DNA from: Acidobacteriota bacterium
GTDB taxonomy: Bacteria > Acidobacteriota > Vicinamibacteria > Vicinamibacterales > JAMQPK01
Length of the DNA: 56,321 nucleotides
Reading direction: 5' to 3'
Assembly: GCA_031395755.1 (NCBI GenBank)
Contig: JANNJO010000029.1
Coordinates: forward strand, 1-56,321
Shown here: positions 15,594 to 54,623 of the stretch, in pieces
Numbering within the stretch: the first letter of the stretch is position 1
Layout: each line of letters begins with the position of its first letter
Program-made: the position numbers and the translations under genes
The notes under the pieces: generated by a model
Seen by the model: the letters and a program-made list of their open reading frames with translations, nothing else
Told to the model about the DNA's origin: nothing
Database searches by the model: none

Positions 15594-16874
15594 GTGGGAA
15601 TGTCCCAAGCCCGCGTGGCCGTCCTGCGGACCAGTCCGGAGACCGTTCTCCGGGACTACCATCGTCTGCTGAACCTCGCCGGGTACCAGAACGTCATCGC
15701 CAAAGATGCCGACACGGCGCTGAAAGTCAACATCTCGTGGCACTTTTTCTTCCCCGGCAGCTCGACGACGCCCTGGCAGCTCGAGGGCGTGATTCGGGGG
15801 ATGAAGAAAGACGGCTACTCGCCCGAATTGATCCACGCGTGCCACAACCGCACGGTCGTCATCGATGCGCGCCTCGGCGAGCGCGAGAACAAGCAGCTTC
15901 CGGTGATCGAGGCGCATGGTCTGCGCAACATCCACACTTACGAAAGCGAAGAGTGGATCAACATCCGCGACGCGGTGGGCGACCTGACGAAGGAGTTTCT
16001 CTGCCTGAACGAGGTCTACCCGCAGGGCTTCATGATTCCGCGCCGGTTCATCGGCGAAAACATCATTCATCTCCCGACGGTTAAAACGCACGTCTTCACG
16101 ACGACGACCGGGGCAATGAAGAACGCGTTTGGGGGGCTGCTCAACGAGCGCAGGCATTGGACGCACCCCGTCATCCATGAAACGCTCGTCGATCTGCTGA
16201 TGATTCAGCAGAAGATCCACCGCGGAGTCTTCGCGGTGATGGACGGGACGTTCGCCGGCGACGGCCCGGGCCCGCGCTGCATGATCCCTTGCGTGAAGAA
16301 CGTGATTCTCGCCAGCGCCGACCAGGTCGCCATCGACGCGATTGCCGCCAGGCTGATGGGGATGGATCCGCTATCGATCAAGTTCATCCGCCTGGCGCAT
16401 GAGCGAGGCCTTGGCTGCGGCGATCCCCGCGACATCGAAATCGTCGGCGATCAGGACGCGGCCGCCGAGAATTGGCATTTTGCGGGGCCGTTCCGGAAGA
16501 TGACCTTCGCGGCCCGCATGCAGCACAAGATCTATTGGGGGCCATGGCGCAAGCCGGTCGAATGGTCCTTGAAAACCGTTCTCGCCCCCTGGGCGTACGC
16601 CGCCAGCGTGGTGTACCACGACAGCTTCTGGTACCCCTTGAAAGCGAAGGGGTTGATGCGCGAAGTGATGGAGAGCCCGTGGGGCAGGTTATTCCGCGGC
16701 TGGGAATCGGCGGTCGCTGATGAGAGCGGCTATCCCAAGGTGGGCGGCGAGCCGGCGGACATCGAGCGCACGGGGCTGAGGGCGCTCGTCCGATCGATCG
16801 GAATTCTGGGAACGTGCCTGAAGGAAGCACCTGAGTTTGCGGCGCGCCGGCGGGTCCAACACACGAAGGTATGA
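15594..16874 (+). CDS. DUF362 domain protein
   Basis: VAVLRTSPETVLRDY...LKVNISW, LPTVKTHVFTTTTGAMKNAFGGL, DGTFAGDGPGP, ILASADQVAIDAIAARLMG follow the DUF362 pattern. The start could be GTG 15594 or ATG 15600. Confidence 0.7.
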   Translation: MGMSQARVAVLRTSPETVLRDYHRLLNLAGYQNVIAKDADTALKVNISWHFFFPGSSTTPWQLEGVIRGMKKDGYSPELIHACHNRTVVIDARLGERENKQLPVIEAHGLRNIHTYESEEWINIRDAVGDLTKEFLCLNEVYPQGFMIPRRFIGENIIHLPTVKTHVFTTTTGAMKNAFGGLLNERRHWTHPVIHETLVDLLMIQQKIHRGVFAVMDGTFAGDGPGPRCMIPCVKNVILASADQVAIDAIAARLMGMDPLSIKFIRLAHERGLGCGDPRDIEIVGDQDAAAENWHFAGPFRKMTFAARMQHKIYWGPWRKPVEWSLKTVLAPWAYAASVVYHDSFWYPLKAKGLMREVMESPWGRLFRGWESAVADESGYPKVGGEPADIERTGLRALVRSIGILGTCLKEAPEFAARRRVQHTKV

Positions 16875-16931
16875 GGGCAGAGGGCAGAGGGCAGAAATAC
16901 ATCTGCCCTCTGCCCTCCTACCTCTGCCCTG
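16873..16931. repeat. heptamer-repeat hairpin, (GAGGGCA)3 facing (TGCCCTC)n
   Basis: 16880..16895 pairs perfectly (16 bp) with 16902..16917 around the loop AATACA. A further 6 bp (16874..16879 with 16925..16930) follows after a 7-nt bulge. It overlaps the DUF362 stop and ends 17 nt before the next start codon. There is no U-tract. Confidence 0.85.
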
Positions 16932-26455: not shown

Positions 26456-27751
26456 GTGCGAATCGCCTTCATCATTCAACGATACGGGACAGAGATCCTC
26501 GGCGGCCCCGAATACGCGTGCCGTCTCATGGCCGAGCAGCTCGCTGAGCGGCACGACGTGGACGTGCTGACCACGTGCGCGCAGGACTACGTCACCTGGA
26601 AGAACGAGTACCCGGAGGGCGCCGACCGCATTCGGGGGGTGACGGTGCGGCGTTTCGCCAGTTCCCAGGTCCGAGACGTCGATGACTTCAACCGGTACTC
26701 GGACTGGATTTTCCAGAATCCGCACGACAGCGCCGATGAGATGGAGTGGCTCAGGCGGCAGGGGCCCTGGTCGCCGGGTCTCATCGATTACCTCAAGCGG
26801 CATCACAAGCAGTACGAATCGCTGATCTTCTTCACCTACCGGTACGCGACGACCGTGCTCGGCCTGCAGATCGATCCGGGCAGAAGCATACTGATTCCCG
26901 CGGCTCACGACGAGCCCCCGATTCATCTCGGCATCTTTCTCGACGTGTTTCGTTTGCCAAAGGCGATCGGATATCTCAGCGAGCCGGAGCGGAAGTTCGT
27001 GACCGAGACATTCGACCGTCACGCGGTCATTGAAGAGACCGTCGGCTGCGGCGTCGAGATTCCACCCCACCATGCCTATCCGCGTTCATCGTCGCAGCCC
27101 GGAACAGATGCCGAGCCGGGAGCCGAAGTGGGCCCAAGTGACACCGAAGACGCCGCCTTGGGCGGCGACGGCGAGCGTTTTCCTTCGCACGTGTCCTCGC
27201 GCGGGGCGGGCTTCCGGCGCCGCCACCGGATTCACGGCACCTTCGCGCTCTATGGCGGCCGTATCGATCCGGGAAAAGGCTGTGAGGAACTCATCGAGTA
27301 CTTCAGCACGTACGTGAACGGCGGCGGCGACGCATCGCTCGTATTGATGGGCGTGAAGCTGATGCCGCTTCCAGAGGAACCATTCATCAATTTCGCCGGC
27401 ATGCTCTCGGATCAGGAACGGCTTCAGGCCCTCGAAGCGGCAACCGTGGTCGTCTGCCCGTCTCCATACGAAAGCCTCTCGCTCATTGCCCTCGAGTCCC
27501 TGGCCGTCGGCACGCCCATTCTCTGCAACGCGCGCAGCGAGGTCTTGGTCGACCATTGCCTGCGCAGCAACGGCGGTCTGTTTTACCGGGACCGCGACGA
27601 GTTCGAGGAGTGTTTCAAACTGCTGGTGGCCGACGAGCGCCTCAGAGCGGCGATGGGCCGCTCCGGGCGCGATTACGCCCGCCGGAATTACCGGTGGGAC
27701 GTGGTGCTGGGAAAGCTTGACAGAATGATCGCGAGGGTGAGACAGAGCTGA
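26456..27751 (+). CDS. glycosyltransferase family 4, paralog type A3 (with an expanded interdomain linker)
   Basis: (V)RIAFIIQRYGTEILGGPEYACRLMAEQLAERHDVDVLTTCAQDYVTWKNEYPEG; ESLSLIALESLAVGTPIL. There is an extra S/P/G/D-rich linker relative to A2. Confidence 0.8.
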   Translation: MRIAFIIQRYGTEILGGPEYACRLMAEQLAERHDVDVLTTCAQDYVTWKNEYPEGADRIRGVTVRRFASSQVRDVDDFNRYSDWIFQNPHDSADEMEWLRRQGPWSPGLIDYLKRHHKQYESLIFFTYRYATTVLGLQIDPGRSILIPAAHDEPPIHLGIFLDVFRLPKAIGYLSEPERKFVTETFDRHAVIEETVGCGVEIPPHHAYPRSSSQPGTDAEPGAEVGPSDTEDAALGGDGERFPSHVSSRGAGFRRRHRIHGTFALYGGRIDPGKGCEELIEYFSTYVNGGGDASLVLMGVKLMPLPEEPFINFAGMLSDQERLQALEAATVVVCPSPYESLSLIALESLAVGTPILCNARSEVLVDHCLRSNGGLFYRDRDEFEECFKLLVADERLRAAMGRSGRDYARRNYRWDVVLGKLDRMIARVRQS

Positions 27752-27762
27752 GTCATGTAAAT

Positions 27763-28094
27763 GAGAAGGAAGAAGTAGGAAGTAAGACGGGGAACCGTAA
27801 CTGAAATTTCAACTTCGACCTCGAGCGGCGTTTGCGCGCGCGGTTTGTAGGGCGGTCCCGAAAATCCTTCGCAGTTGTTGTGCTTCCAACAGCAACTCGG
27901 TATCCGATGCGACATCAGCGTCTCGCATGTATTCGAGCCACACGACTGATTCGTCCACTTCTTCGACCACTGTTCCCAGTTTTGCGATGAACTCGGCGCG
28001 CGACCGTCCGCGCTGGGCCGCATGGTAATTCAGCGAAGCAACCGGATGGATCGCAGTTCTGCACTCCCTTCTTCCTTCTCCCTTCTTCCTTACT
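27763..28094. repeat. split heptamer-repeat element: purine-unit arm (27763..27786) and pyrimidine-unit arm (28064..28094) bracketing a gene remnant
   Basis: The left arm is GAGAAGG AAGAAGT AGGAAGT AAG. The right arm is CTCCCTT CTTCCTT CTCCCTT CTTCCTT ACTCC. 27763..27775 is the exact reverse complement of 28068..28080 (13 nt). The right arm overlaps the response-regulator stop codon. Confidence 0.6.
27809..28060 (-). pseudogene. truncated four-helix-bundle protein gene (23S rRNA intervening-sequence protein / Avd family)
   Basis: My own minus-strand translation gives RTAIHPVASLNYHAAQRGRSRAEFIAKLGTVVEEVDESVVWLEYMRDADVASDTELLLEAQQLRRIFGTALQTARANAARGRS* (stop at 27809..27811). This matches the ..GANYR.A.RARS.AEFI.KL.IV.EE.DET.YWLELL.. 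core of the family. There is no start codon and about 50 N-terminal residues are missing. It is not in the supplied ORF track; ORF 27688..28023 is a different frame. Confidence 0.7.
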
Positions 28095-29541
28095 CCGGTA
28101 CAGATACCGCCTCCCTCTCGCCGCTCTCCTGCTCCGCTCTCGATTCGCTCGTCCGCTTCCGTCGCGGCCGGATGTCGTAACGCTTGATCATTTCGTTCAA
28201 CGTCGTCGGCTTGATTCGGAGAAGCTCCGCGGCGCGCTTCTGAACGCCGCCGGCCGCCTCGAGGGTCGACTCGATGAGGCGCTTCTCAAAATCGGTAATC
28301 ACGTCCTTGAACGAAATGCCTTCCGGCGGAACAACGAATCGCGGCATCTGGAAGATCGTGGGCCGCCCGATGTGATCGGGCAGCAGATCGGGACCGATAC
28401 GGCGGCCGGTCGAAAGAACCACGGCTCGCTCGATCACGTTTTCCAGCTCCCGGACGTTGCCGGGCCAGTCGTAGGACATCATGATATCCAGCGCGTCGGG
28501 CACCAGCTCGAGGTCCGGCTTGCGATTTTCCTCGCCGTACTTCTCGATGAAGTGCTGCACGAGCAGCGGAATATCGTCCTTGCGATCGCGCAGAGGCGGC
28601 AGCACCACGTTGACGACGTTCAGCCTGTAGAAGAGATCCTCGCGAAAGCGCCCCTCCTCCATCGTCTTCTTCAGGTCCACGTTGGTGGCGGCGACAATCC
28701 GCACATCGACCTTGATGACTTCCATGCCGCCCAGGCGCATGAACTCCCGCTCCTGCATGACGCGGAGCAGCTTGGCCTGAGTCTCGAGCGGGATGTTGCC
28801 GATTTCGTCGAGGAAAATGGTTCCCTTGTCCGCGAGGTCGAAGAGCCCCTTCTTGGGGTAGACGGCGCCGGTAAACGCGCCTTTCACGTGCCCGAAGAGC
28901 GTCGACTCCAGCAGATCGGGCGGAAGGTTGCCCGAATTCACCGTCACGAAAGCGCGGTCTTTCCGCTGCGAGTGCGTGTGAATCGCGCGCGCGACGAGCT
29001 CCTTGCCAGTGCCGCTCTCGCCCTGAATGAGGATCGTCGAACGGCTCGGCGCCGCCTGGATGATCAGGTCGAACACCCGGCGCATCGCCGGACCGCGCCC
29101 GACGATGTTGTCGAAGTGGCTGTACTGTTCCTGGATGTTCTGCCGCAGCGGGCGATTCTCGTTGACCAGGCGACGGAGACCGAGGGCGTTCTTGACGACC
29201 ACCATCACCTCGTCGTTCTTGAACGGCTTGGTGATGTAGTCGAAGGCCCCGCGCTTCATCGACGTGATGGCATTCTCGACCGATGCGTACGCCGTCACCA
29301 TGATGACCGCCAGCTCATCGTCCAGCTTCTTGAGCGATTCGAGCGTGGTCATCCCATCAATGCCGGGCATCATGAGGTCGACAATCGCGGCGTCGAACGG
29401 GATATTGCGCGCCAGCTCGATGCCTTCCTCTCCGCTGGCGGCGAGACGCACGGAGTACCCCTCGCCCTTCAGCAGGGTTTCGAGGATCTCGCGCATGATT
29501 TCTTCGTCGTCGACTACGAGAATCGAACCATTCTTCTGCAT
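28090..29541 (-). CDS. sigma-54-dependent response regulator (NtrC family)
   Basis: Receiver domain ILVVDDEEIMREIL...DLMMPGIDG. AAA+ domain GESGTGKELVARAIH with GAFTGA. C-terminal Fis-type HTH AAELLRIKPTTLNEMIKRY. Start chosen at MQKNGS, 9 nt after the kinase stop. Confidence 0.9.
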   Translation of the reverse strand: MQKNGSILVVDDEEIMREILETLLKGEGYSVRLAASGEEGIELARNIPFDAAIVDLMMPGIDGMTTLESLKKLDDELAVIMVTAYASVENAITSMKRGAFDYITKPFKNDEVMVVVKNALGLRRLVNENRPLRQNIQEQYSHFDNIVGRGPAMRRVFDLIIQAAPSRSTILIQGESGTGKELVARAIHTHSQRKDRAFVTVNSGNLPPDLLESTLFGHVKGAFTGAVYPKKGLFDLADKGTIFLDEIGNIPLETQAKLLRVMQEREFMRLGGMEVIKVDVRIVAATNVDLKKTMEEGRFREDLFYRLNVVNVVLPPLRDRKDDIPLLVQHFIEKYGEENRKPDLELVPDALDIMMSYDWPGNVRELENVIERAVVLSTGRRIGPDLLPDHIGRPTIFQMPRFVVPPEGISFKDVITDFEKRLIESTLEAAGGVQKRAAELLRIKPTTLNEMIKRYDIRPRRKRTSESRAEQESGEREAVSVPE

Positions 29542-29549
29542 ATGCTCAC

Positions 29550-32447
29550 TCAATTCCTGGCCGCGCCCGGACGCGCGGACGCGACAGACTCCGGCAACGA
29601 CACGGTGAACCGCGTCCCCTGACCGACTGCGCTCTGGCATGTCAACGTGCCCTCGTGCTCGCGCACAATGCCGTAGGTAATCGAGAGCCCGAGGCCCGTA
29701 CCCTTGCCGATCAGCTTGGTCGTGAAGAACGGGTCGTAAATCCGCGAAAGGTGCTCGCTGGGAATTCCGGAACCCGTGTCTCCAACTTCCGCCAGCACGC
29801 CCCCACCCTCGATGCGAGTCGACACCGACAACCAGCCGCCCTTCGGCATGGCATCTCGTGCGTTGAGAAACAGATTCAGGAACACCTGCTGCAGCTTGTG
29901 CTCAATGCCTGTGACGAGGGCCGGCGAGGGGCACAGCTCGCGCCGTACCTTGATTTTGCCGGCCAAGAGCTGAGGCTCCAGGAGCGACAGCACATCGCTG
30001 ATGATGGCGTTCAGATCCACAGGACCGGTTTCCTCAGGGTTCGATCCGCTCGAGCGAGACAGGTTGAGCAGCCCGTTGACGATCTTGGCGGCGCGGAACG
30101 TCTGCTGTTCGATCTTCTCGAGCATCCGCGTCCTCGGGTCGTCGGGATCCGCGTTGCTCAACAGCATCTGCGTGAAGCTCGAGATGCCGGTCAGCGGCGT
30201 GTTCACTTCGTGCGCCACGCCTGCGGCCAGCAGGCCGACCGAGGCCATCTTGTCGGAAATCTGGAGCTGCTCCTCGAGGTGCACGCGCTCGGTGACGTCT
30301 TCGATGATGATGATGTTGCCCACCGTCGACATCGCGAACTGGCCGCTCGGCGCCTTCAGCGGGGCGGTCGCGATGTTCACGCGCAGCCGCTCGCCGGCTT
30401 TCGCTGCACGCCCCGCGAGCGGAACGCGGTAGAGCGACGCGCCGGCGGGAGCTTCGCGCTGCGCCGCCCGCAGCGCTTCGACAAACGGCCCGTCCAATAC
30501 CTCTTCGAGCTTGTGCCCGATGGCCTCTGTCGCCGACAGACCGTACATATCCGCGAGCGCGCGATTCCACCGAAGGACGCGGCCGTCCAAATCCTCGACG
30601 ACGAGCCCGTTATCGAGCGACTCCACGATGTTCTCGTTGAACTCCTGGAGCCGCTGCAGTTCGCTCGCTTTCAGCTGGAGCTGCCGGTAGAGGCGCCCGT
30701 TCTCGAGCGCCGTCGCGACATGGCTGCCAACGGCTGACAGCAGACCCAAGTCCTCGCTGCTGAGCGGCTCGCCCTGGCCCCGCTGGCCGAGCGCAAGCAC
30801 TGCAATCGTTCCACCCTTCGACACGCACGGCACGAAGTAGTGCACGCCGCGGAGCCGCCAGAACGCAATCTCCTCCGGCGGAAACGCGCCGTGGAGGGTC
30901 GGATCGTCGAGCGACAGCGCCATCCCGCCGGCCAGGCTCGCGGCGAGTTGCGAGTGCCGGCTCAAGCCGGGCACCGAAAGATCGCCGAACCCTTCGGCGC
31001 GGATGACTTCGTAGTTGCCGGACGCTTCGTCGACCAGCAGCAGCGCCATCCGATCGATCACGAACGTGTCGCGAACACGCGCGACAAGCCGCTCCCCGAG
31101 CCGATCGAGATCGAGGTCGCTGTTGAGGTCGCGCGCAAATCCGACGAGCGCTCTGCGATAGTCGTATTGGTCCCGATAGAAGGCGCGGTCGAGCGCGTTC
31201 TGAATGGCGCTCTTGACGGGGCTGAAGAGCAGCACGACCACGATCGTCGCGAGCATCGCGATGATCATGTTGTGACGCTCGGCCGCGTCGAGAAACACGA
31301 CGCCCGCAAGCCGGAGCAGTGTGGCGTAAATCGTGAAGATGGCGAGAATCACCGCCGTGTACACCAGGCTGCGCTTGACGATGACCTCGACATCCATCAG
31401 CCGGTAGCGGATCAGCGCCGACGCGAAGGCGAGCGGCACGAGGCTGAGCGGAATCACCGACAGCTCCATCGGCAGCGACGTGCGCAGGCCCAGCGCATAC
31501 GGCAGGGCGTAGCCGAACGCGAATGGGCCAGCCCCGAATGCGGTGCCCCAGATGATCCACCGCAGCTGGCGGCGTGCGGTCGCCGACCGCACGCGATCCA
31601 TGGCGCGCATCAGCACGACCAGGCCCGCAATCATGAAGATCGAGAGATACAACGGCTCGAGTTGATCGAGCAGCGTCAGCACGCGCGAATAGAGCGGCGT
31701 GTTTGTGGAGAGCCGGCCGACGGCGAGCACGTTCACGGCGAACAGCAGGACAGCGGCGGCATAAAACAGCGCCACGAGACGCCGTCCGCGGCCCCGAATC
31801 CATGCGGATGGACGATCGGGAAAGACGAGCGTGAAATGCAGGAACAGTGGTGCGAGGAGGAGGGTGGCGACGACATCCGCCCAGTAGAAGTACCAGTCGA
31901 GCCGATCGAGCCGGCTGAACGAGAACGTCAGTGTGCCGAAAAACGCGAGGCACAGCCAGAAGAAGTGCAGGGTCGCAGGATCGCTGGGCCGGCGCAGCCG
32001 CACGGAGGCGCCGACGAGCAGCGTGAAGATTCCGATCGCGGCGCCGATGACGTACAGCGTGGGGTTGCCGCCCGGAACAGGTGCGACGTCAACGTTGAGC
32101 ATGGTGCGCTCGCCCAGGCGGAGCACCGTATAGGACAGCGGGTCTGACTCCGTTGCCTGACCCAGCGCGTGATGAACCGCATCGACGCTCTCCAGAGGAA
32201 CGCCGTCGATAGCGATGAGCACATCGCCCGGCCGGATACCGGCAGCCTTCGCGCCGCCGTGCGCCGCCACGTCCGCAGCTGTGACACCCTCGGGGCGCGC
32301 TTCCCACAGCACGCCGTCCTCGAGCTTGTGCGAGGTCGCGCGCACCGCGATGTTCAGGGCGCCGAAGCAAAGCAGGACTCCGACCAGGGCAAAGAGGCTC
32401 CACCCTGCCAACGGACGCCGGTGCGTTCGACGGGGTTGACTTTTCAT
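29550..32447 (-). CDS. sensor histidine kinase: N-terminal PDZ, multi-TM region, GAF, PAS, HisKA, HATPase_c
   Basis: One TM segment, then a PDZ-like GIRPGDVLIAIDGVPLESVDAV...YTVLRLGERTM. About 7 hydrophobic helices follow. GAF-like region (DRMALLLVDEASGNY...), PAS (NIVESLDNGLVVEDLDGRVLRWNRAL), H-box GVAHEVNTPL, N-box LNLFLNARDAM, G-boxes GDTGSGIP and GTGLGLSI. Confidence 0.85.
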   Translation of the reverse strand: MKSQPRRTHRRPLAGWSLFALVGVLLCFGALNIAVRATSHKLEDGVLWEARPEGVTAADVAAHGGAKAAGIRPGDVLIAIDGVPLESVDAVHHALGQATESDPLSYTVLRLGERTMLNVDVAPVPGGNPTLYVIGAAIGIFTLLVGASVRLRRPSDPATLHFFWLCLAFFGTLTFSFSRLDRLDWYFYWADVVATLLLAPLFLHFTLVFPDRPSAWIRGRGRRLVALFYAAAVLLFAVNVLAVGRLSTNTPLYSRVLTLLDQLEPLYLSIFMIAGLVVLMRAMDRVRSATARRQLRWIIWGTAFGAGPFAFGYALPYALGLRTSLPMELSVIPLSLVPLAFASALIRYRLMDVEVIVKRSLVYTAVILAIFTIYATLLRLAGVVFLDAAERHNMIIAMLATIVVVLLFSPVKSAIQNALDRAFYRDQYDYRRALVGFARDLNSDLDLDRLGERLVARVRDTFVIDRMALLLVDEASGNYEVIRAEGFGDLSVPGLSRHSQLAASLAGGMALSLDDPTLHGAFPPEEIAFWRLRGVHYFVPCVSKGGTIAVLALGQRGQGEPLSSEDLGLLSAVGSHVATALENGRLYRQLQLKASELQRLQEFNENIVESLDNGLVVEDLDGRVLRWNRALADMYGLSATEAIGHKLEEVLDGPFVEALRAAQREAPAGASLYRVPLAGRAAKAGERLRVNIATAPLKAPSGQFAMSTVGNIIIIEDVTERVHLEEQLQISDKMASVGLLAAGVAHEVNTPLTGISSFTQMLLSNADPDDPRTRMLEKIEQQTFRAAKIVNGLLNLSRSSGSNPEETGPVDLNAIISDVLSLLEPQLLAGKIKVRRELCPSPALVTGIEHKLQQVFLNLFLNARDAMPKGGWLSVSTRIEGGGVLAEVGDTGSGIPSEHLSRIYDPFFTTKLIGKGTGLGLSITYGIVREHEGTLTCQSAVGQGTRFTVSLPESVASARPGAARN

Positions 32448-37000: not shown

Positions 37001-39870
<2,870 letters not shown>

Positions 39871-39873
39871 GGA

Positions 39874-39939
39874 GTAGGGATTGGTGATTGGGGACTAGCT
39901 CTGCCCGCTAGTCCCTAATCCCTGGTCCCCAATCCCTGC
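39874..39939. terminator. heptamer-repeat hairpin filling the convergent gpmI / small-ORF spacer (candidate bidirectional terminator)
   Basis: Left units are AGGGATT GGTGATT GGGGACT AGC. Right units are GCT AGTCCCT AATCCCT GGTCCCC AATCCCT. The inner stem 39886..39899 pairs with 39907..39920 (14 bp including one G:T), with a 7-nt loop. The outer stem 39876..39884 pairs with 39929..39937 (9 bp), separated by an internal loop. There is no clean U-tract. Confidence 0.6.
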
Positions 39940-47140: not shown

Positions 47141-49147
47141 CTAGCCCGCCTCCTCGTACTCGGTCTTCAATTTGGCAATCACGCTGGGATCGGCCAGCGT
47201 GGTGGTATCGCCCAGCGCCTTGCCTTCGGCGATATCCTTCAAAAGGCGCCGCATGATTTTGCCCGAGCGGGTCTTGGGAAGATCCGCTGCGAAGAGAATG
47301 TCCTCGGGCCGCGCGATCGCCCCGATTTTCTTGACAACATGCTCTTTGAGCTCAGCCATCAGCGCCGGGCTCGCGACGTTCCCTTCCTTCAGGATGACGA
47401 ACGCTGAAATGGCCTGCCCCTTCAGCTCGTGCGCGCGGCCGACGACGGCGGCCTCCGCCACTTTCGGGTGATCGACGAGCGCGCTCTCGATTTCCATCGT
47501 CCCGATCCGATGTCCCGCCACGTTAATCACGTCGTCCACGCGGCCGAGCACCCAGAAATATCCGTCTTCGTCGCGCTTGGCGCCATCGCCCGTAAAGTAC
47601 GTGGCGCGATCCCATTTGCTCCAGTACTGCGTCACGAAGCGCTCGGGATCGCCGTAGATTCCTCGAAGCATCGCGGGCCACGGCCGGGTCAGCGCAAGGA
47701 GCCCGCCCCCGACTGCAATCGGCTCGCCGGATACCGTCCGGATTTCTGCTTTGATGCCTGGAAAGGGCTGCGTCGCAGAACCCGGCTTGAGCCGCGTGAT
47801 CCCAGGCAGCGGCGTGATCATGATCATTCCGGTCTCCGTCTGCCACCACGTGTCGACGATCGGGCACCGCTCGCCGCCGATGTTCTTGTGGTACCAGATC
47901 CACGCTTCGGGGTTGATGGGCTCACCAACCGATCCCAGCAGCCTCAGACCCGACAGGTTGCGGCGCTTCGGCCAGTCGGTGCCCCACTTCATGAACGCGC
48001 GGATCGCCGTCGGCGCGGTGTAGAAGATGGTCACGCCGTACCGCTCGATGATCTCCCACAGCCGGTCTTTCTGCGGCCAGTCCGGTGCCCCTTCGTACAT
48101 CACGACAGTGGCGCCGTTGGCGAGAGGGCCATAGACAACATAACTGTGGCCCGTGACCCACCCGATATCGGCGGTACACCAGTATACATCGTCTTCCTTA
48201 AGATCGAAGACCCACTTCGCCGTCGCGTACGTGCCGGTGAGATATCCGCCGGTCGTGTGCATGATGCCCTTGGGCTTCCCCGTCGTGCCGGACGTGTAAA
48301 GAATGTAGAGAAGGTCTTCGGAGTCCATCGGCTCGGGCGCGCAGTCCAAGGGTGCCTTCGCAAGTAGCTGATGCCAGTCATGCTCGCGCACTTGACGGGC
48401 TTCTGGCTCCGGGCTTCGGACTTCCGGCCTGGAGTCTGGAGCCTGGAGCCTGGAGTCCGCTGCCTGGAGTCTGCGAAGCACGATCATGTGTTCAATCGAA
48501 GGCGTACCTTCGACGGCTTCGTCCGCGATTTTCTTGAGCGGCACGACCGAGCCCCTTCGATATCCACCATCGGCGGTCACGAGCACCTTGCACTGGGCGT
48601 CGTTGATGCGGTCGCGCAGCGACTCGGCGCTGAATCCGCCGAACACAATGCTGTGCGGCGCGCCGATCCGCGCGCAGGCGAGCATCGCGATAGCGAGCTC
48701 GGGCACCAGGGGCATGTAGATCGCCACGCGATCGCCCTTTCTGACCCCGAGCGATTTCAGGACGTTGGCACACGCGCTGACCTGGCGGTAGAGATCGAAG
48801 TACGTGAGCGTCCGGCGATCGCCGGGCTCGCCTTCCCAGATGATGGCGGCTTTGTTCCGGCGCGCGGTCTTGACGTGTCGATCGACGCAATTGACCGACG
48901 CATTGATCTGACCGCCGACGAACCACTTCGCATGCGGTGGATTGGTCCAGTCGAGAACCTTCGTCCACGTGCGGGTCCACTCGAGCTCGGACGCAAACTT
49001 CGCCCAGAAGCCTTCGTAATCACGCTCGGCTTCTTCGTAGGGTGTCGTGTCGCCGACGATGGCCGTTGCGCGGAACTCGGAGGGGGGCTCGAACACGCGG
49101 TCCTCATGGAGGAGCGCCGAAATTTCGGGATCGACTGGGTCGGACAT
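47141..49147 (-). CDS. acs: acetyl-CoA synthetase
   Basis: [14 protein letters not shown]-binding motif, [31 protein letters not shown]. 668 aa, with an extra repeat-encoded loop (see 48396..48475). Confidence 0.95.
48396..48475. repeat. heptamer-repeat imperfect hairpin inside the acs coding sequence, in frame
   Basis: GGCTYCN units (48398..48427) face CTGGAGY units (48428..48475). 48396..48427 pairs with 48428..48459 as 24 Watson-Crick pairs, 6 G:T pairs and 2 mismatches out of 32 (my hand count). It encodes [26 protein letters not shown] on the minus strand. Confidence 0.8.
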
Positions 49148-51633: not shown

Positions 51634-53112
51634 CTAACGAACGCGTTCCAGCTCTTTGGCGACAGACGGCGCCACGCGCGCGGGGGTCATGATCGTCGGC
51701 GTCAGCAGAATCACGAGATCGGTCTTGCGGCGGCTCATCGTCTCGCCGCGGAAGATGGCGCCGATTCCCGGCAGGTCGCCGAGGAACGGCACCTTTCGTA
51801 CCTCGCGGCGCAGCCGCTCCTCCATCAGGCCTGCAATGACGATCGTTTCCTTTTCGTGAACGCGCACCATCGTGTCCGCCTCGCGCACGCTGAGAATCGG
51901 CACCGTGTCCCCGAACCGCGAGGTGGCCTGACCCGTCCGCTCGGTCAGACTCGGCGTGATGCTCATGTTGATCATGCCGTCGCTTGAGATCTGTGGCGTG
52001 ACGCTCAGCACGACCCCCTCCGTAATCGCCTGCGGCTCGACCGTCGTCTGAAGAATCCGTCCCGACACGCCGTCGGTCTGCGTTGTCGTCCTGAAGAACA
52101 CGTCCTGCGTGCCGACACGCATGATGGCGGGCTCGTTGTTGAGCGCGTTCACGGTCGGGCTGGCCATGACGTTGACTTTTCCTTGCGTGGCAAACGCGTT
52201 GAGGAGCCCGGTGAAGTCCTTGATGTTGAGGCCCGCGGTGAAGGTGCCGCCAGAGGTCGGCACGACGTTCTGCGTCAGCGATACCGCGTCGCCTGCGCGC
52301 TCGATGACGAGACTCCAGTTGATGCCGGCCGAGAACTCGTCGCTGAGCGTCACCTCGATGACCTTCGCCTGGATCTGCACCTGGCGCGTCGCGCGGTTCT
52401 GCACGGCTTCGAGATAGAGCTGGATCTGATCGAGCCGGTCTGGATAGTCGGTGGCCTGCAGCAAGGCCGCCTTCTTGTCCATGTTGAAGCGCCCGTCGGG
52501 CGACAGCAGCGTCTGCACACCGGCAGACACGTCGCTGAAGATGTCGCCGTTGTCCGAGCCGGTGACCTCCGCCGAGCTCCCCTGGCCGCCGGCCTGCGTT
52601 CCCGGATTCATTCCCGACGCGCCTGACGGCGTAATGGAGTTCGAGGCGGCCAGCGTGCGCGACCCCGAGCGGCGTGTCACGACGTAGTTCAGGTCGAAGC
52701 GGCGTGTTTCAAATCGGCGCTTGAACACGCGGATGACGTTCCCCTGCATCGAGTAGTCGAAACCATGCGGCTGCAGGATCATCTCGAGCGCCTGACGCAG
52801 GGTGACATCTTTGAGGTCGCCGCGAAACGTGCCCTGCACGTCCGGGTCGGGCACGACGCTGAGCCTCGTGTCCCGAACGAGCATGAGCAGCAGATCGGTG
52901 ATGGGCGTCGAATCGGAAAGCGTGATCGTGACAGGACGCGTACTGTCGAGATCGCTTCCCTGCTGGCGCTCGTCGAGTTGGGTCACCGCGAGCGGCCGAA
53001 GCGGCGTCTGGCTGGTTTGGGCCGGCGGCGCCGGCACCTGAGCGGCGCCCTGGACGGTTGCCATGAGCAGCACCGCCACCGCGCCGATGCGGATCCGCCG
53101 AATCACAAACAC
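51634..53112 (-). CDS. secretin (GspD/PilQ/MshL family)
   Basis: Signal peptide. Secretin C-domain VMASPTVNALNNEPAIMRVGTQ, VLSVTPQIS, VPFLGDLPGIGAIFR, DLVILLTPTI. Confidence 0.85.
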   Translation of the reverse strand: MFVIRRIRIGAVAVLLMATVQGAAQVPAPPAQTSQTPLRPLAVTQLDERQQGSDLDSTRPVTITLSDSTPITDLLLMLVRDTRLSVVPDPDVQGTFRGDLKDVTLRQALEMILQPHGFDYSMQGNVIRVFKRRFETRRFDLNYVVTRRSGSRTLAASNSITPSGASGMNPGTQAGGQGSSAEVTGSDNGDIFSDVSAGVQTLLSPDGRFNMDKKAALLQATDYPDRLDQIQLYLEAVQNRATRQVQIQAKVIEVTLSDEFSAGINWSLVIERAGDAVSLTQNVVPTSGGTFTAGLNIKDFTGLLNAFATQGKVNVMASPTVNALNNEPAIMRVGTQDVFFRTTTQTDGVSGRILQTTVEPQAITEGVVLSVTPQISSDGMINMSITPSLTERTGQATSRFGDTVPILSVREADTMVRVHEKETIVIAGLMEERLRREVRKVPFLGDLPGIGAIFRGETMSRRKTDLVILLTPTIMTPARVAPSVAKELERVR

Positions 53113-53182
53113 TACGAGCGCACTCCCACGACAGATATTTCGGTCCTTCGAGAGCTAAACGATAGGAAGCGGAGGACTTTAT

Positions 53183-53256
53183 GGGGTTCAGGGGTTGGGG
53201 ATTAGGGATTGGGGATTAGGGATTAGGGATTAGGGACTAGGGCTTAGGGATTAGGG
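53183..53256. repeat. tandem heptamer array, (GGGATTR)n, about 10.5 units, one-armed
   Basis: The units are GGGGTTCA GGGGTTG GGGATTA GGGATTG GGGATTA GGGATTA GGGATTA GGGACTA GGGCTTA GGGATTA GGG. There are eleven G3-4 runs with 4-nt spacers. No complementary arm lies nearby. It sits between the ino1 stop (53304) and the secretin start (53112). Confidence 0.9.

Positions 53257-53303: not shown

Positions 53304-54623
<1,320 letters not shown>

Follow-up and report, generated by a model that had tools for sequence, protein, structure and literature searches.

A truncated four-helix-bundle gene between inverted heptamer arrays in an Acidobacteriota genome, probably a decaying copy of a cassette of the rRNA intervening-sequence type

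The DNA analysed here (the window) comprises the 56,321 nucleotides of contig JANNJO010000029.1 from a Vicinamibacterales genome of the phylum Acidobacteriota (assembly GCA_031395755.1). The feature under study occupies a convergent spacer of 338 nt (27752-28089) between the stop codons of a family-4 glycosyltransferase (GT4) gene and a sigma-54 response-regulator gene, and consists of the remnant of a four-helix-bundle (4HB) protein gene bracketed by two complementary arrays of 7-nt units. It is probably a dead, eroding copy of a 4HB gene cassette of the type found as intervening sequences (IVSs) in 23S rRNA, and is filed here as a decayed member of the IVS-like 4HB cassettes with repeat-array arms. 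As judged from related loci, the cassette appears to be made up of a 4HB gene of about 120 codons (S23p / TIGR02436 / Avd fold family) that is preceded by a short leader and framed by an inverted arm at either end. In each arm, about 4-8 degenerate units follow one another in tandem; they are 7 nt long here and 8 nt in other lineages.

The spacer is as the preliminary description had drawn it; both stop codons were located, and the arrangement is unchanged in the assembled contigs of three sequencing runs. That description had also recognised a truncated 4HB gene without start codon on the minus strand, and the translated frame (...SLNYHAAQRGRSRAEFIAKLGTVVEEVDESVVWLEYMRDADVASDTELLLEAQQLRRIFGTALQTARANAARGRS, with its end at 27809) bears this out. 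It matched the NCBIfam model TIGR02436 'four helix bundle protein' with an E-value of 1.3e-6 and 28.6 bits (cut-off 24), the residues encoded at 28033-27842 covering positions 40-107 of the 109 in the profile, while intact relatives match over positions 3-108. Against the Pfam family PF05635, which had been named as the check, the frame remained below threshold (E 0.039, 14.6 bits vs 33.8), and the family assignment is held by TIGR02436 and by direct homologues: 235 database proteins matched at E-values of 1e-3 or below (best E 1e-33, 92% identity), and among the matches listed most carry PF05635, many are named 'four helix bundle protein' at source and several belong to Vicinamibacterales. 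In the intact relatives, no Pfam or NCBIfam family other than 4HB was matched. Compared with the intact copy at the same site in a related genome (locus L166), about 200 nt are gone from the window: the leader and, from the start codon onwards, ~40 codons. Helix 1 is missing along with half of helix 2 and the residues L7, R10, F14 and Q37, which are near-invariant in alignment A2. The frame is open for 159 codons because it continues, out of frame, into the regulator gene. Its earliest in-frame ATG, GTG or TTG is the GTG at 27970, which lies far inside the domain with just 53 codons remaining, so that a usable start is lacking. Given the partial profile coverage, the absence of a start before 27970 and the ~200 nt missing relative to L166, the frame is therefore a gene remnant, not a member protein. 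The GTG at 28064, which resembles the start region of locus L001, was considered as a retained original start and rejected, since by comparison with L166 this stretch opens the leader, and the real start follows ~95 nt further on.

The complementary heptamer arms are likewise real. The perfect complement of 13 nt noted previously (27763-27775 versus 28068-28080) lies within a pair of 26 nt (27766-27791 / 28066-28091) that is 81% complementary. Period 7 is the strongest in both arms (self-match 0.61 on the left, 0.78 on the right), and Tandem Repeats Finder reports the right arm at 28067-28091 with this period; the heptamer description thus stands for the window, with the correction that other lineages use units of 8 nt. 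The arm pair has an inverted-repeat score of 13.5, and none of 7,861 control pairs taken at equal spacing from the same 56 kb scores above 13.0. Folding of the spacer, proposed in the preliminary description, gave the expected outcome: on both strands, the two arms are base-paired with each other in the minimum-energy structure (z-scores -1.9 and -2.8). The left arm, and with it the cassette, starts 6-12 nt past the GT4 stop and is of the same unit class, GAAGTAG, as the arms of L001, L004, L085 and L166. In the right arm, four units are present compared with 7-8 in L166 and L085, and the stop codons usual for such arms are absent, with only one frame closed. The window copy would now be an imperfect stem of ~26 bp around a loop of ~270 nt.

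The same spacer was found in various states of occupancy among relatives. In L166, the site holds an intact gene encoding a 134-residue 4HB protein, 81% identical, flanked by the same two genes and oriented as in the window, with arms of seven GAAGTAG/GAAGTAA units that begin at both host stop codons and a leader of ~95 nt. In L085, with 92% identity and the same site and orientation, ~115 nt corresponding to codons 2-39 are missing. The deletions in L085 and in the window differ, and the window arms are shortened and degenerate; L166, L085 and the window form a decay series of which the window copy is one stage. In L001-L003, an intact 4HB gene (84% identical) occupies the same spacer but runs the opposite way, and a further complete hairpin separates it from the GT4 gene; the identity of 83.8% between the 4HB sequences of the window and L001 is close to that of the flanking genes (80.7-93.5%). 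In L086, the sister of the window in the GT4 tree, the site is empty, with 3 nt between the two stops. L087, L088 and L090 are also empty, with neither hairpin nor gene and, together with L086, short spacers of ~25-41 nt as judged by tblastn ends. Comparison of the filled sites (window, L166) with empty L086 places the insertion between the two stop codons. Other lineages carry, in the same spacer, solo hairpins with units AGATTGG, GAACTAG, AGTCACT or AACGAAG, arms around non-coding DNA, once nested (L125, L127), or unrelated 4HB genes with their own, different arms (L137, L160). As intact, eroded, empty and differently filled states all occur among relatives, the spacer has been gained, lost and re-used. 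Cassettes of the window's family were also found at other convergent spacers, between genes for an epimerase and a CDP-alcohol phosphatidyltransferase (L004, L167) and between those for an ABC transporter and a DUF3617 protein (L168); the epimerase / CDP-alcohol phosphatidyltransferase spacer holds 7-nt arms in one lineage and 8-nt arms in another.

Some further details of this spacer are recorded here. In L127 (downstream of GT4, at ~100-480 of the extracted stretch) and L125, outer (GACGACA)n / (TGTCGTC)n arrays surround inner CACAAAG / CTTTGTG arrays, and in L127 only, the nested arms also hold a perfect palindrome of ~50 bp; this nesting suggests that hairpins may have been inserted repeatedly into the loops of earlier hairpins. 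In L095, L097, L098, L091 and L101, the GT4 frame enters the repeat array and takes its stop codon from a repeat unit. The array-derived GT4 C-terminal tails are lineage-specific, such as ..KLDKDRDKDRDR.., while the tail in L001 reads ..RLGKK before its stop (L001 4838-4850). At L001 4975-4995, and also in L002 and L003, a near-consensus sigma-54 promoter (TGGGCACG TGTC ATGCA vs TGGCACG-N4-TTGCW) lies ~20 nt before a GAGGAG ribosome-binding site and ~28 nt before the ATG, beside the sigma-54 activator gene. The site is absent in L004 and L166 and could be due to chance.

For the link between gene and arms, 80 loci with relatives of the intact protein were collected from species-representative genomes of Acidobacteriota, Bacteroidota, Chloroflexota, Planctomycetota, Verrucomicrobiota, Nitrospirota and other phyla, the sample containing 332 kb besides the gene-flanking DNA; about 90 intact relatives were compared overall. 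Within 150 nt of the 80 4HB genes, 34 period-7 arrays were found compared with 20 in the other 332 kb, a 23-fold density, and for period 8 there were 13 near the 4HB genes and 11 elsewhere. Periods 4-6 and 9-12 yielded 0-5 arrays in all and none beside a 4HB gene. Flanking inverted repeats were scored by aligning the 200 nt upstream of each gene to the reverse complement of the 200 nt downstream, with a score of 20 or more counted as strong. Strong flanking arms were found in 45 of the 76 testable 4HB loci and in no control among 81 other genes from these loci (maximum 19.5); the prospect raised previously, that intact paralogues might lack such arms, was thus not borne out. These control genes were used in place of a permutation null, which was unusable (null maximum 60) because the arms of different loci share units and pair mutually. 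The aligned arms consist almost entirely of tandem 7-8-nt units, whose variants follow each other in mirrored order on the two sides; 10-150 nt separate the upstream arm from the 4HB start, and 0-60 nt lie between the stop and the downstream arm. A complete hairpin is present on one or both sides in 11 of the 76 loci, and in L017 and L077 the arrangement is hairpin-gene-hairpin with the hairpins as direct repeats.

Arrays beside 4HB genes are also found in seven finished plasmids of cultured or enriched strains (two of Nostoc and one each of Gloeocapsa, Planktothrix, Chlorohelix, Bernardetia and Treponema), and in Planktothrix the arms are (AATCCCC)n. In a Bacteroides locus (L177 1434-1935), a 4HB product 98% identical to PDB entry 2RLD is encoded between araD and araA on the same strand, with a (TTGACAA)4-(TTGTCAA)3 hairpin before the gene and (TTGTCAA)4 after it. 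The 2RLD protein, with five chains in the entry, was crystallised and is functionally uncharacterised. Searches of the PDB sequences with profile A2 and with single sequences found 2RLD alone and did not reach the Xanthomonas S23p structure 2GSC or the Avd structures; the Xanthomonas GGGAATC repeats are therefore not tied directly to the 4HB gene of that organism.

As side observations on these loci, solo arrays or hairpins lie 0.6-2.3 kb from the 4HB gene in L006, L060, L077 and L081, often with the same unit as the local arms, which hints at a possible local spread of gene-less copies. On the Gloeocapsa (L171), Planktothrix (L172) and Chlorohelix (L173) plasmids, the 4HB cassettes stand within rows of defence and restriction-modification genes, their neighbours being DUF1156 / Swt1-HEPN, DISARM drmD / MmeI and helicase / N6-methylase genes, and on the two Nostoc plasmids (L169, L170) the cassette lies directly upstream of a site-specific integrase gene.

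In the protein tree, loci group by arm class and not by host. The 8-nt-armed genes of Nitrospirota, Verrucomicrobiota, Bacteroidota and Terriglobia fall largely together, with a few 7-nt-armed genes nested within; the AGATTTC-armed genes of Chloroflexota, Desulfobacterota and Planctomycetota form one group; and in Acidobacteriaceae both a 7-nt and an 8-nt clade are present, far apart in the tree. Arm similarity correlated with protein identity over all pairs (Mantel r 0.62, with none of 2000 permutations as high) and among cross-phylum pairs alone (Spearman 0.30), and in the eight cross-phylum pairs with at least 70% protein identity the arms are as alike as in same-phylum pairs. As the arms follow the protein tree across phyla, gene and arms are taken as one unit of inheritance and horizontal transfer. 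In one clade of 13 loci, 95% of the arm cells are kept paired by compensatory changes, and double changes occur in 7 of 28 pairs (22 cells), a score reached by none of 500 shuffles, with arm registers chosen to maximise pairing. On the coding strand the 5' arm is G-rich and C-poor (694 G vs 277 C), and the structure therefore reads purine arm first on both strands. Closure of all three reading frames was tried as a defining property of the arms and, the bias being modest, kept as a tendency only: all three frames are closed in 38 of 118 arms reading inward compared with 21 outward, with 6.9 and 4.4 stop triplets per 100 nt, respectively.

These comparisons of sequence document the anatomy, the co-transfer and the decay of the cassette; the route of its movement we infer as follows. 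The arms would be the ends of the cassette, and the cassette a selfish element of the IVS type. The arm units are predicted to be binding sites of the 4HB protein that the cassette itself encodes, a pentamer that binds nucleic acids, in the manner of the subterminal sites of transposon ends. This role is considered the most likely one because, within the protein lineage, both the period and the sequence of the units have been kept far beyond neutral expectation. Host functions would act on the paired arms as DNA, by recombination or slippage, and the inverted arms would thereby favour insertion, flipping and internal deletion of the cassette, events all represented in the comparative series. 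Upon read-through, the long stem of the RNA may be cut by RNase III, as in the 23S rRNA IVSs. With its gene destroyed, the window copy would be inert, an intermediate on the way to a gene-less heptamer hairpin. The earlier proposal that the short hairpins elsewhere are gene-less derivatives of the same element gains from the decay series and the variable occupancy of this spacer; the other hairpins of the window may be such derivatives.

The likeness to rRNA IVSs drawn in the preliminary description is apt. The Coxiella IVS has a 28-bp stem of terminal inverted repeats with an S23p/4HB open reading frame in the loop, S23p is a pentameric toroid, and RNase III processing has been shown for the 23S rRNA IVSs of Coxiella and others; S23p-encoding IVSs are sporadic and thought to be horizontally mobile, the protein has no known function, and gene-less IVS hairpins exist in Salmonella and Yersinia (PMC4990558). 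With the IVSs of Coxiella burnetii, Leptospira and Brucella, the cassettes share the occurrence of gene-less hairpins and the placement of a 4HB reading frame inside a hairpin whose long stem is built from terminal inverted repeats; the window has this stem-loop architecture, with the arms 27766-27791 / 28066-28091 as the stem. IVSs reside in helix 9, 25 or 45 of 23S rRNA, the window copy between two protein genes, and because of this location the latter is not counted as an rRNA IVS; neither Rfam families nor rRNA were matched in the window. The arms of the window copy are tandem 7-nt arrays, which are not known to have been reported for IVSs.

Intergenic heptamer repeats are known as STRR sequences in Calothrix and other heterocystous cyanobacteria, as GGGAATC in Xanthomonas, GGGGA(T/C)T in Nostoc and TAACTGA in Beggiatoaceae, the last supplying stops in all three frames (PMC4692102, PMC4679880). 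The window arms, as intergenic head-to-tail 7-nt units, are STRR-like, and the AGGGATT arrays elsewhere in the window are of the Nostoc type; shared features are tandem 7-nt units near gene ends, variable length and the occasional inverted pair forming a stem-loop. In both papers, the repeats are discussed as simple-sequence repeats, as G-quadruplex motifs or as regulatory elements, and the terms 4HB and S23p do not occur in their texts (PMC4692102, PMC4679880). The arrays described here differ from the known heptamer repeats in forming the two ends of a gene cassette and in co-varying with the encoded protein.

Other systems resemble the cassette in part. Repetitive extragenic palindromic (REP) sequences and REPINs with their RAYT genes likewise combine a small gene between inverted short repeats, gene-less intergenic hairpins and several families per genome, but RAYT is an HUH (Y1) tyrosine transposase whose catalytic motif is known, no catalytic activity is known for the 4HB fold, and each REP arm is one palindromic unit instead of a tandem 7-8-nt array; because no HUH enzyme is present, the window feature is not assigned to this class. 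The ends of transposons such as Tn7 and Mu, and miniature inverted-repeat transposable elements (MITEs), offer direct-repeat arrays, mutually inverted ends and gene-less, internally deleted derivatives, like the cassette. Unlike these, it has units of 7-8 nt vs ~22 nt, with no transposase and no target-site duplication seen. The accessory protein Avd of diversity-generating retroelements (DGRs) forms a pentamer, is basic and binds nucleic acids; its four-helix bundle is related to PF05635 (PMC10053308) and of the same fold family as the relic. No reverse transcriptase, template or variable repeat lies beside the relic or the intact same-site copies, whose neighbours are the GT4, sigma-54 regulator and histidine kinase genes, and for lack of a reverse transcriptase the relic is not considered a DGR Avd.

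Four other explanations were weighed. The juxtaposition might be accidental, a 4HB pseudogene having come to lie between generic intergenic heptamer tracts or hairpins that are slippage products or terminators. The window does contain heptamer arrays without a 4HB gene (16873-16930, 39869-39938, 53182-53256), and heptamer repeats are over-represented between genes in some bacteria, with polymerase slippage proposed as a cause (PMC4692102, PMC4679880). This account is extremely improbable, as it has to face the strong flanking arms of 4HB genes and their absence from neighbouring controls, arm units that track the protein tree across phyla, GAAGTAG-type arms on intact cassettes of the same family here and at other sites, and an arm pair that surpasses every control pair of the window. 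Nearly as hard to credit is an invertible phase-variable switch, with the arms as recombination sites and the two orientations as two states, for which intact copies in both orientations between the same genes (L001-L003 vs L166) and the similar divergence of the 4HB and flanking genes would speak. No recombinase gene is adjacent, and four sequencing runs, represented by assembled contigs only, in which rare variants are invisible, yielded neither inversion joints nor junction reads nor alternative contigs. As the GT4 tree interleaves empty and differently occupied sites between the two orientations, independent insertion fits at least as well.

The fragment might still be a working gene, its short product (helices 2b-4) being made from a non-canonical start or after a -1 frame change from the regulator gene. 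The 73 retained codons show 29 synonymous and 7 non-synonymous differences from L085 (pN/pS 0.086), a sign of strong purifying selection; the open frame runs from within the regulator gene through the arm, the right arm has lost its usual stops, and the purine-rich arm resembles a ribosome-binding site. Against this stand the first ATG, GTG or TTG, not before codon 106 of the open frame, the absence of any slippery sequence seen in the spacer, the loss of helix 1, half of helix 2 and the near-invariant residues, the different deletions of L085 and the window, and the short, degenerate arms. The low pN/pS therefore points to recent independent truncations or to conversion from intact, arm-sharing paralogues, and least to continued use, because start and helices are missing; we consider a working gene unlikely. 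A hairpin kept by the host as RNA, be it a bidirectional terminator, a stabilising 3' stem or an RNase III site with the gene remnant as mere loop filler, would account for the position exactly between convergent stop codons, for the hairpins of differing units that many lineages carry in this spacer, and for the pairing of the arms in the folds of both strands. The closest relatives, on the other hand, have no hairpin in spacers of 3-41 nt, the spacer shows no U-tract and no terminator-like site, the arms are without G:U asymmetry generally, and those of the window are degenerating, which makes this explanation rather unlikely as well.

Several points weigh against the reading as an eroding IVS-type cassette, preferred here. 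No duplicated target site is recognisable on comparing the filled sites of the window and L166 with the empty site of L086, and the cassette encodes no recombinase or transposase. The pN/pS ratio is lower than is expected for an old pseudogene. The 80 loci are drawn from the closest relatives of a single subfamily and do not represent PF05635 as a whole, and co-inheritance alone could account for part of the correlation between protein and arms. Most loci stem from metagenome assemblies, in which inverted repeats may be mis-oriented; the arm anatomy is not regarded as an assembly artefact because the arms are imperfect, shorter than reads and found again on finished isolate plasmids. Arm mismatches of the G:U type (78) are not in excess over those of the A:C type (73), so that nothing indicates a strand-specific RNA stem, and complementarity may instead be maintained in the DNA itself or through concerted evolution. 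The cutting of cassette RNA by RNase III is accordingly proposed by analogy only, the binding of the units by the 4HB protein is predicted, and IVS stems were compared by description only. Among RNA sequencing runs, none was found to contain the window sequence.

In a broader form, which we put forward tentatively and as a possibility rather than an expectation, 4HB genes with inverted 7-8-nt arrays would be widespread, horizontally transferred cassettes whose pentamer recognises its own units; rRNA IVSs would be cassettes that landed in rRNA, and many intergenic heptamer repeats and hairpins their gene-less derivatives or landing sites. The repeats meant are the cyanobacterial STRR, the GGGAATC/GGGGATT arrays and the solo hairpins of the window. 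In the searched literature, with subscription journals mostly outside it, no described link between 4HB/PF05635 and heptamer arrays was found, literal repeat strings included, and it appears that arms carried and transferred with 4HB genes across phyla have not been described before. The relic and its relatives tie together three separate puzzles, namely the function of the S23p/4HB proteins, whose structures have been solved, the origin of 23S IVSs and the excess of intergenic heptamers in cyanobacteria, Xanthomonas and other groups. In Bacteroides thetaiotaomicron, the 2RLD gene carries such arms within the arabinose operon and offers a tractable model for the whole class. For annotation, heptamer hairpins by gene ends, and short C-terminal extensions of host proteins into them, may be cassette footprints.

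The features of the window are collected in Table 1.

Table 1. Coordinates of the cassette relic, its neighbours and the other heptamer repeats of the window
Feature	Position	Strand	Sequence or content	Remarks
GT4 glycosyltransferase gene (family-4)	26456-27751	+		stop TGA 27749-27751
Left arm (3' arm in relic orientation)	27757..27791	+	purine heptamers GAGAAGG AAGAAGT AGGAAGT AAGACGG	
4HB gene relic	27809..28033	-	codons ...LNYHAAQRGRSRAEFIAKLGTVVEEVDESVVWLEYM...ARGRS + stop 27809-27811	helices 2b-4; start codon absent
Junction remnant, 5' arm to relic	28034..28064	-	GTGCAGAACTGCGATCCATCCGGTTGCTTCG	first bases = leader start after the arm in L166 and L085
Right arm (5' arm in relic orientation)	28065..28094	+	pyrimidine tract; minus strand AAGGAAG AAGGGAG AAGGAAG AAGGGAG	
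Sigma-54 response-regulator gene, NtrC/AtoC type	28090-29640	-		stop TAA 28090-28092, inside the first unit of the right arm
Gene-less hairpin	16872-16930		(GAGGGCA)x3, loop AAATACA, (TCTGCCC)x4	TGA of upstream DUF362-family gene 15594-16874 overlaps the first unit
Gene-less hairpin	39868-39938		AGGGAGT AGGGATT GGTGATT GGGGACT ... + complement	starts at TAG of phosphoglycerate-mutase gene 38293-39870
Period-7 imperfect palindrome	48396-48473			inside acetyl-CoA synthetase gene 47141-49147 (-), AMP-binding domain
Unpaired array	53182-53256		~ten AGGGATT/GGGGATT units	between minus-strand ORFs (open reading frames) 51634-53112 and 53304-54623

Around the spacer, the regulator gave 393.8 bits with the PEP-CTERM PrsR model (cut-off 502.6), and a histidine kinase gene is also found in the neighbourhood in the window, L001 and L166; the names PrsR and PrsK were dropped for regulator and kinase, and generic names are used, because the NCBIfam equivalog cut-offs were not reached. 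The proteins P0002, P0012 and P0059 matched none of the PADLOC defence-protein models, no site resembling a sigma-70 promoter was found in the spacer, and no other 4HB gene was found in the 56-kb window. For the unpaired array, no complementary arm occurs further on in the window, and the units of the hairpin at 39868-39938 belong to the class of the G-quadruplex-forming GGGGATT repeats of Nostoc (PMC4692102). The palindrome at 48396-48473, one of the other hairpins, sits in a coding gene. It is in frame and encodes a low-complexity stretch, the Pfam match being ~26 residues longer there than the profile, and when it is read on the antisense strand its arm mismatches would mostly become G:U pairs; it looks like a heptamer hairpin that may have been inserted in frame in a surface loop, in the manner of the Rickettsia palindromic elements.

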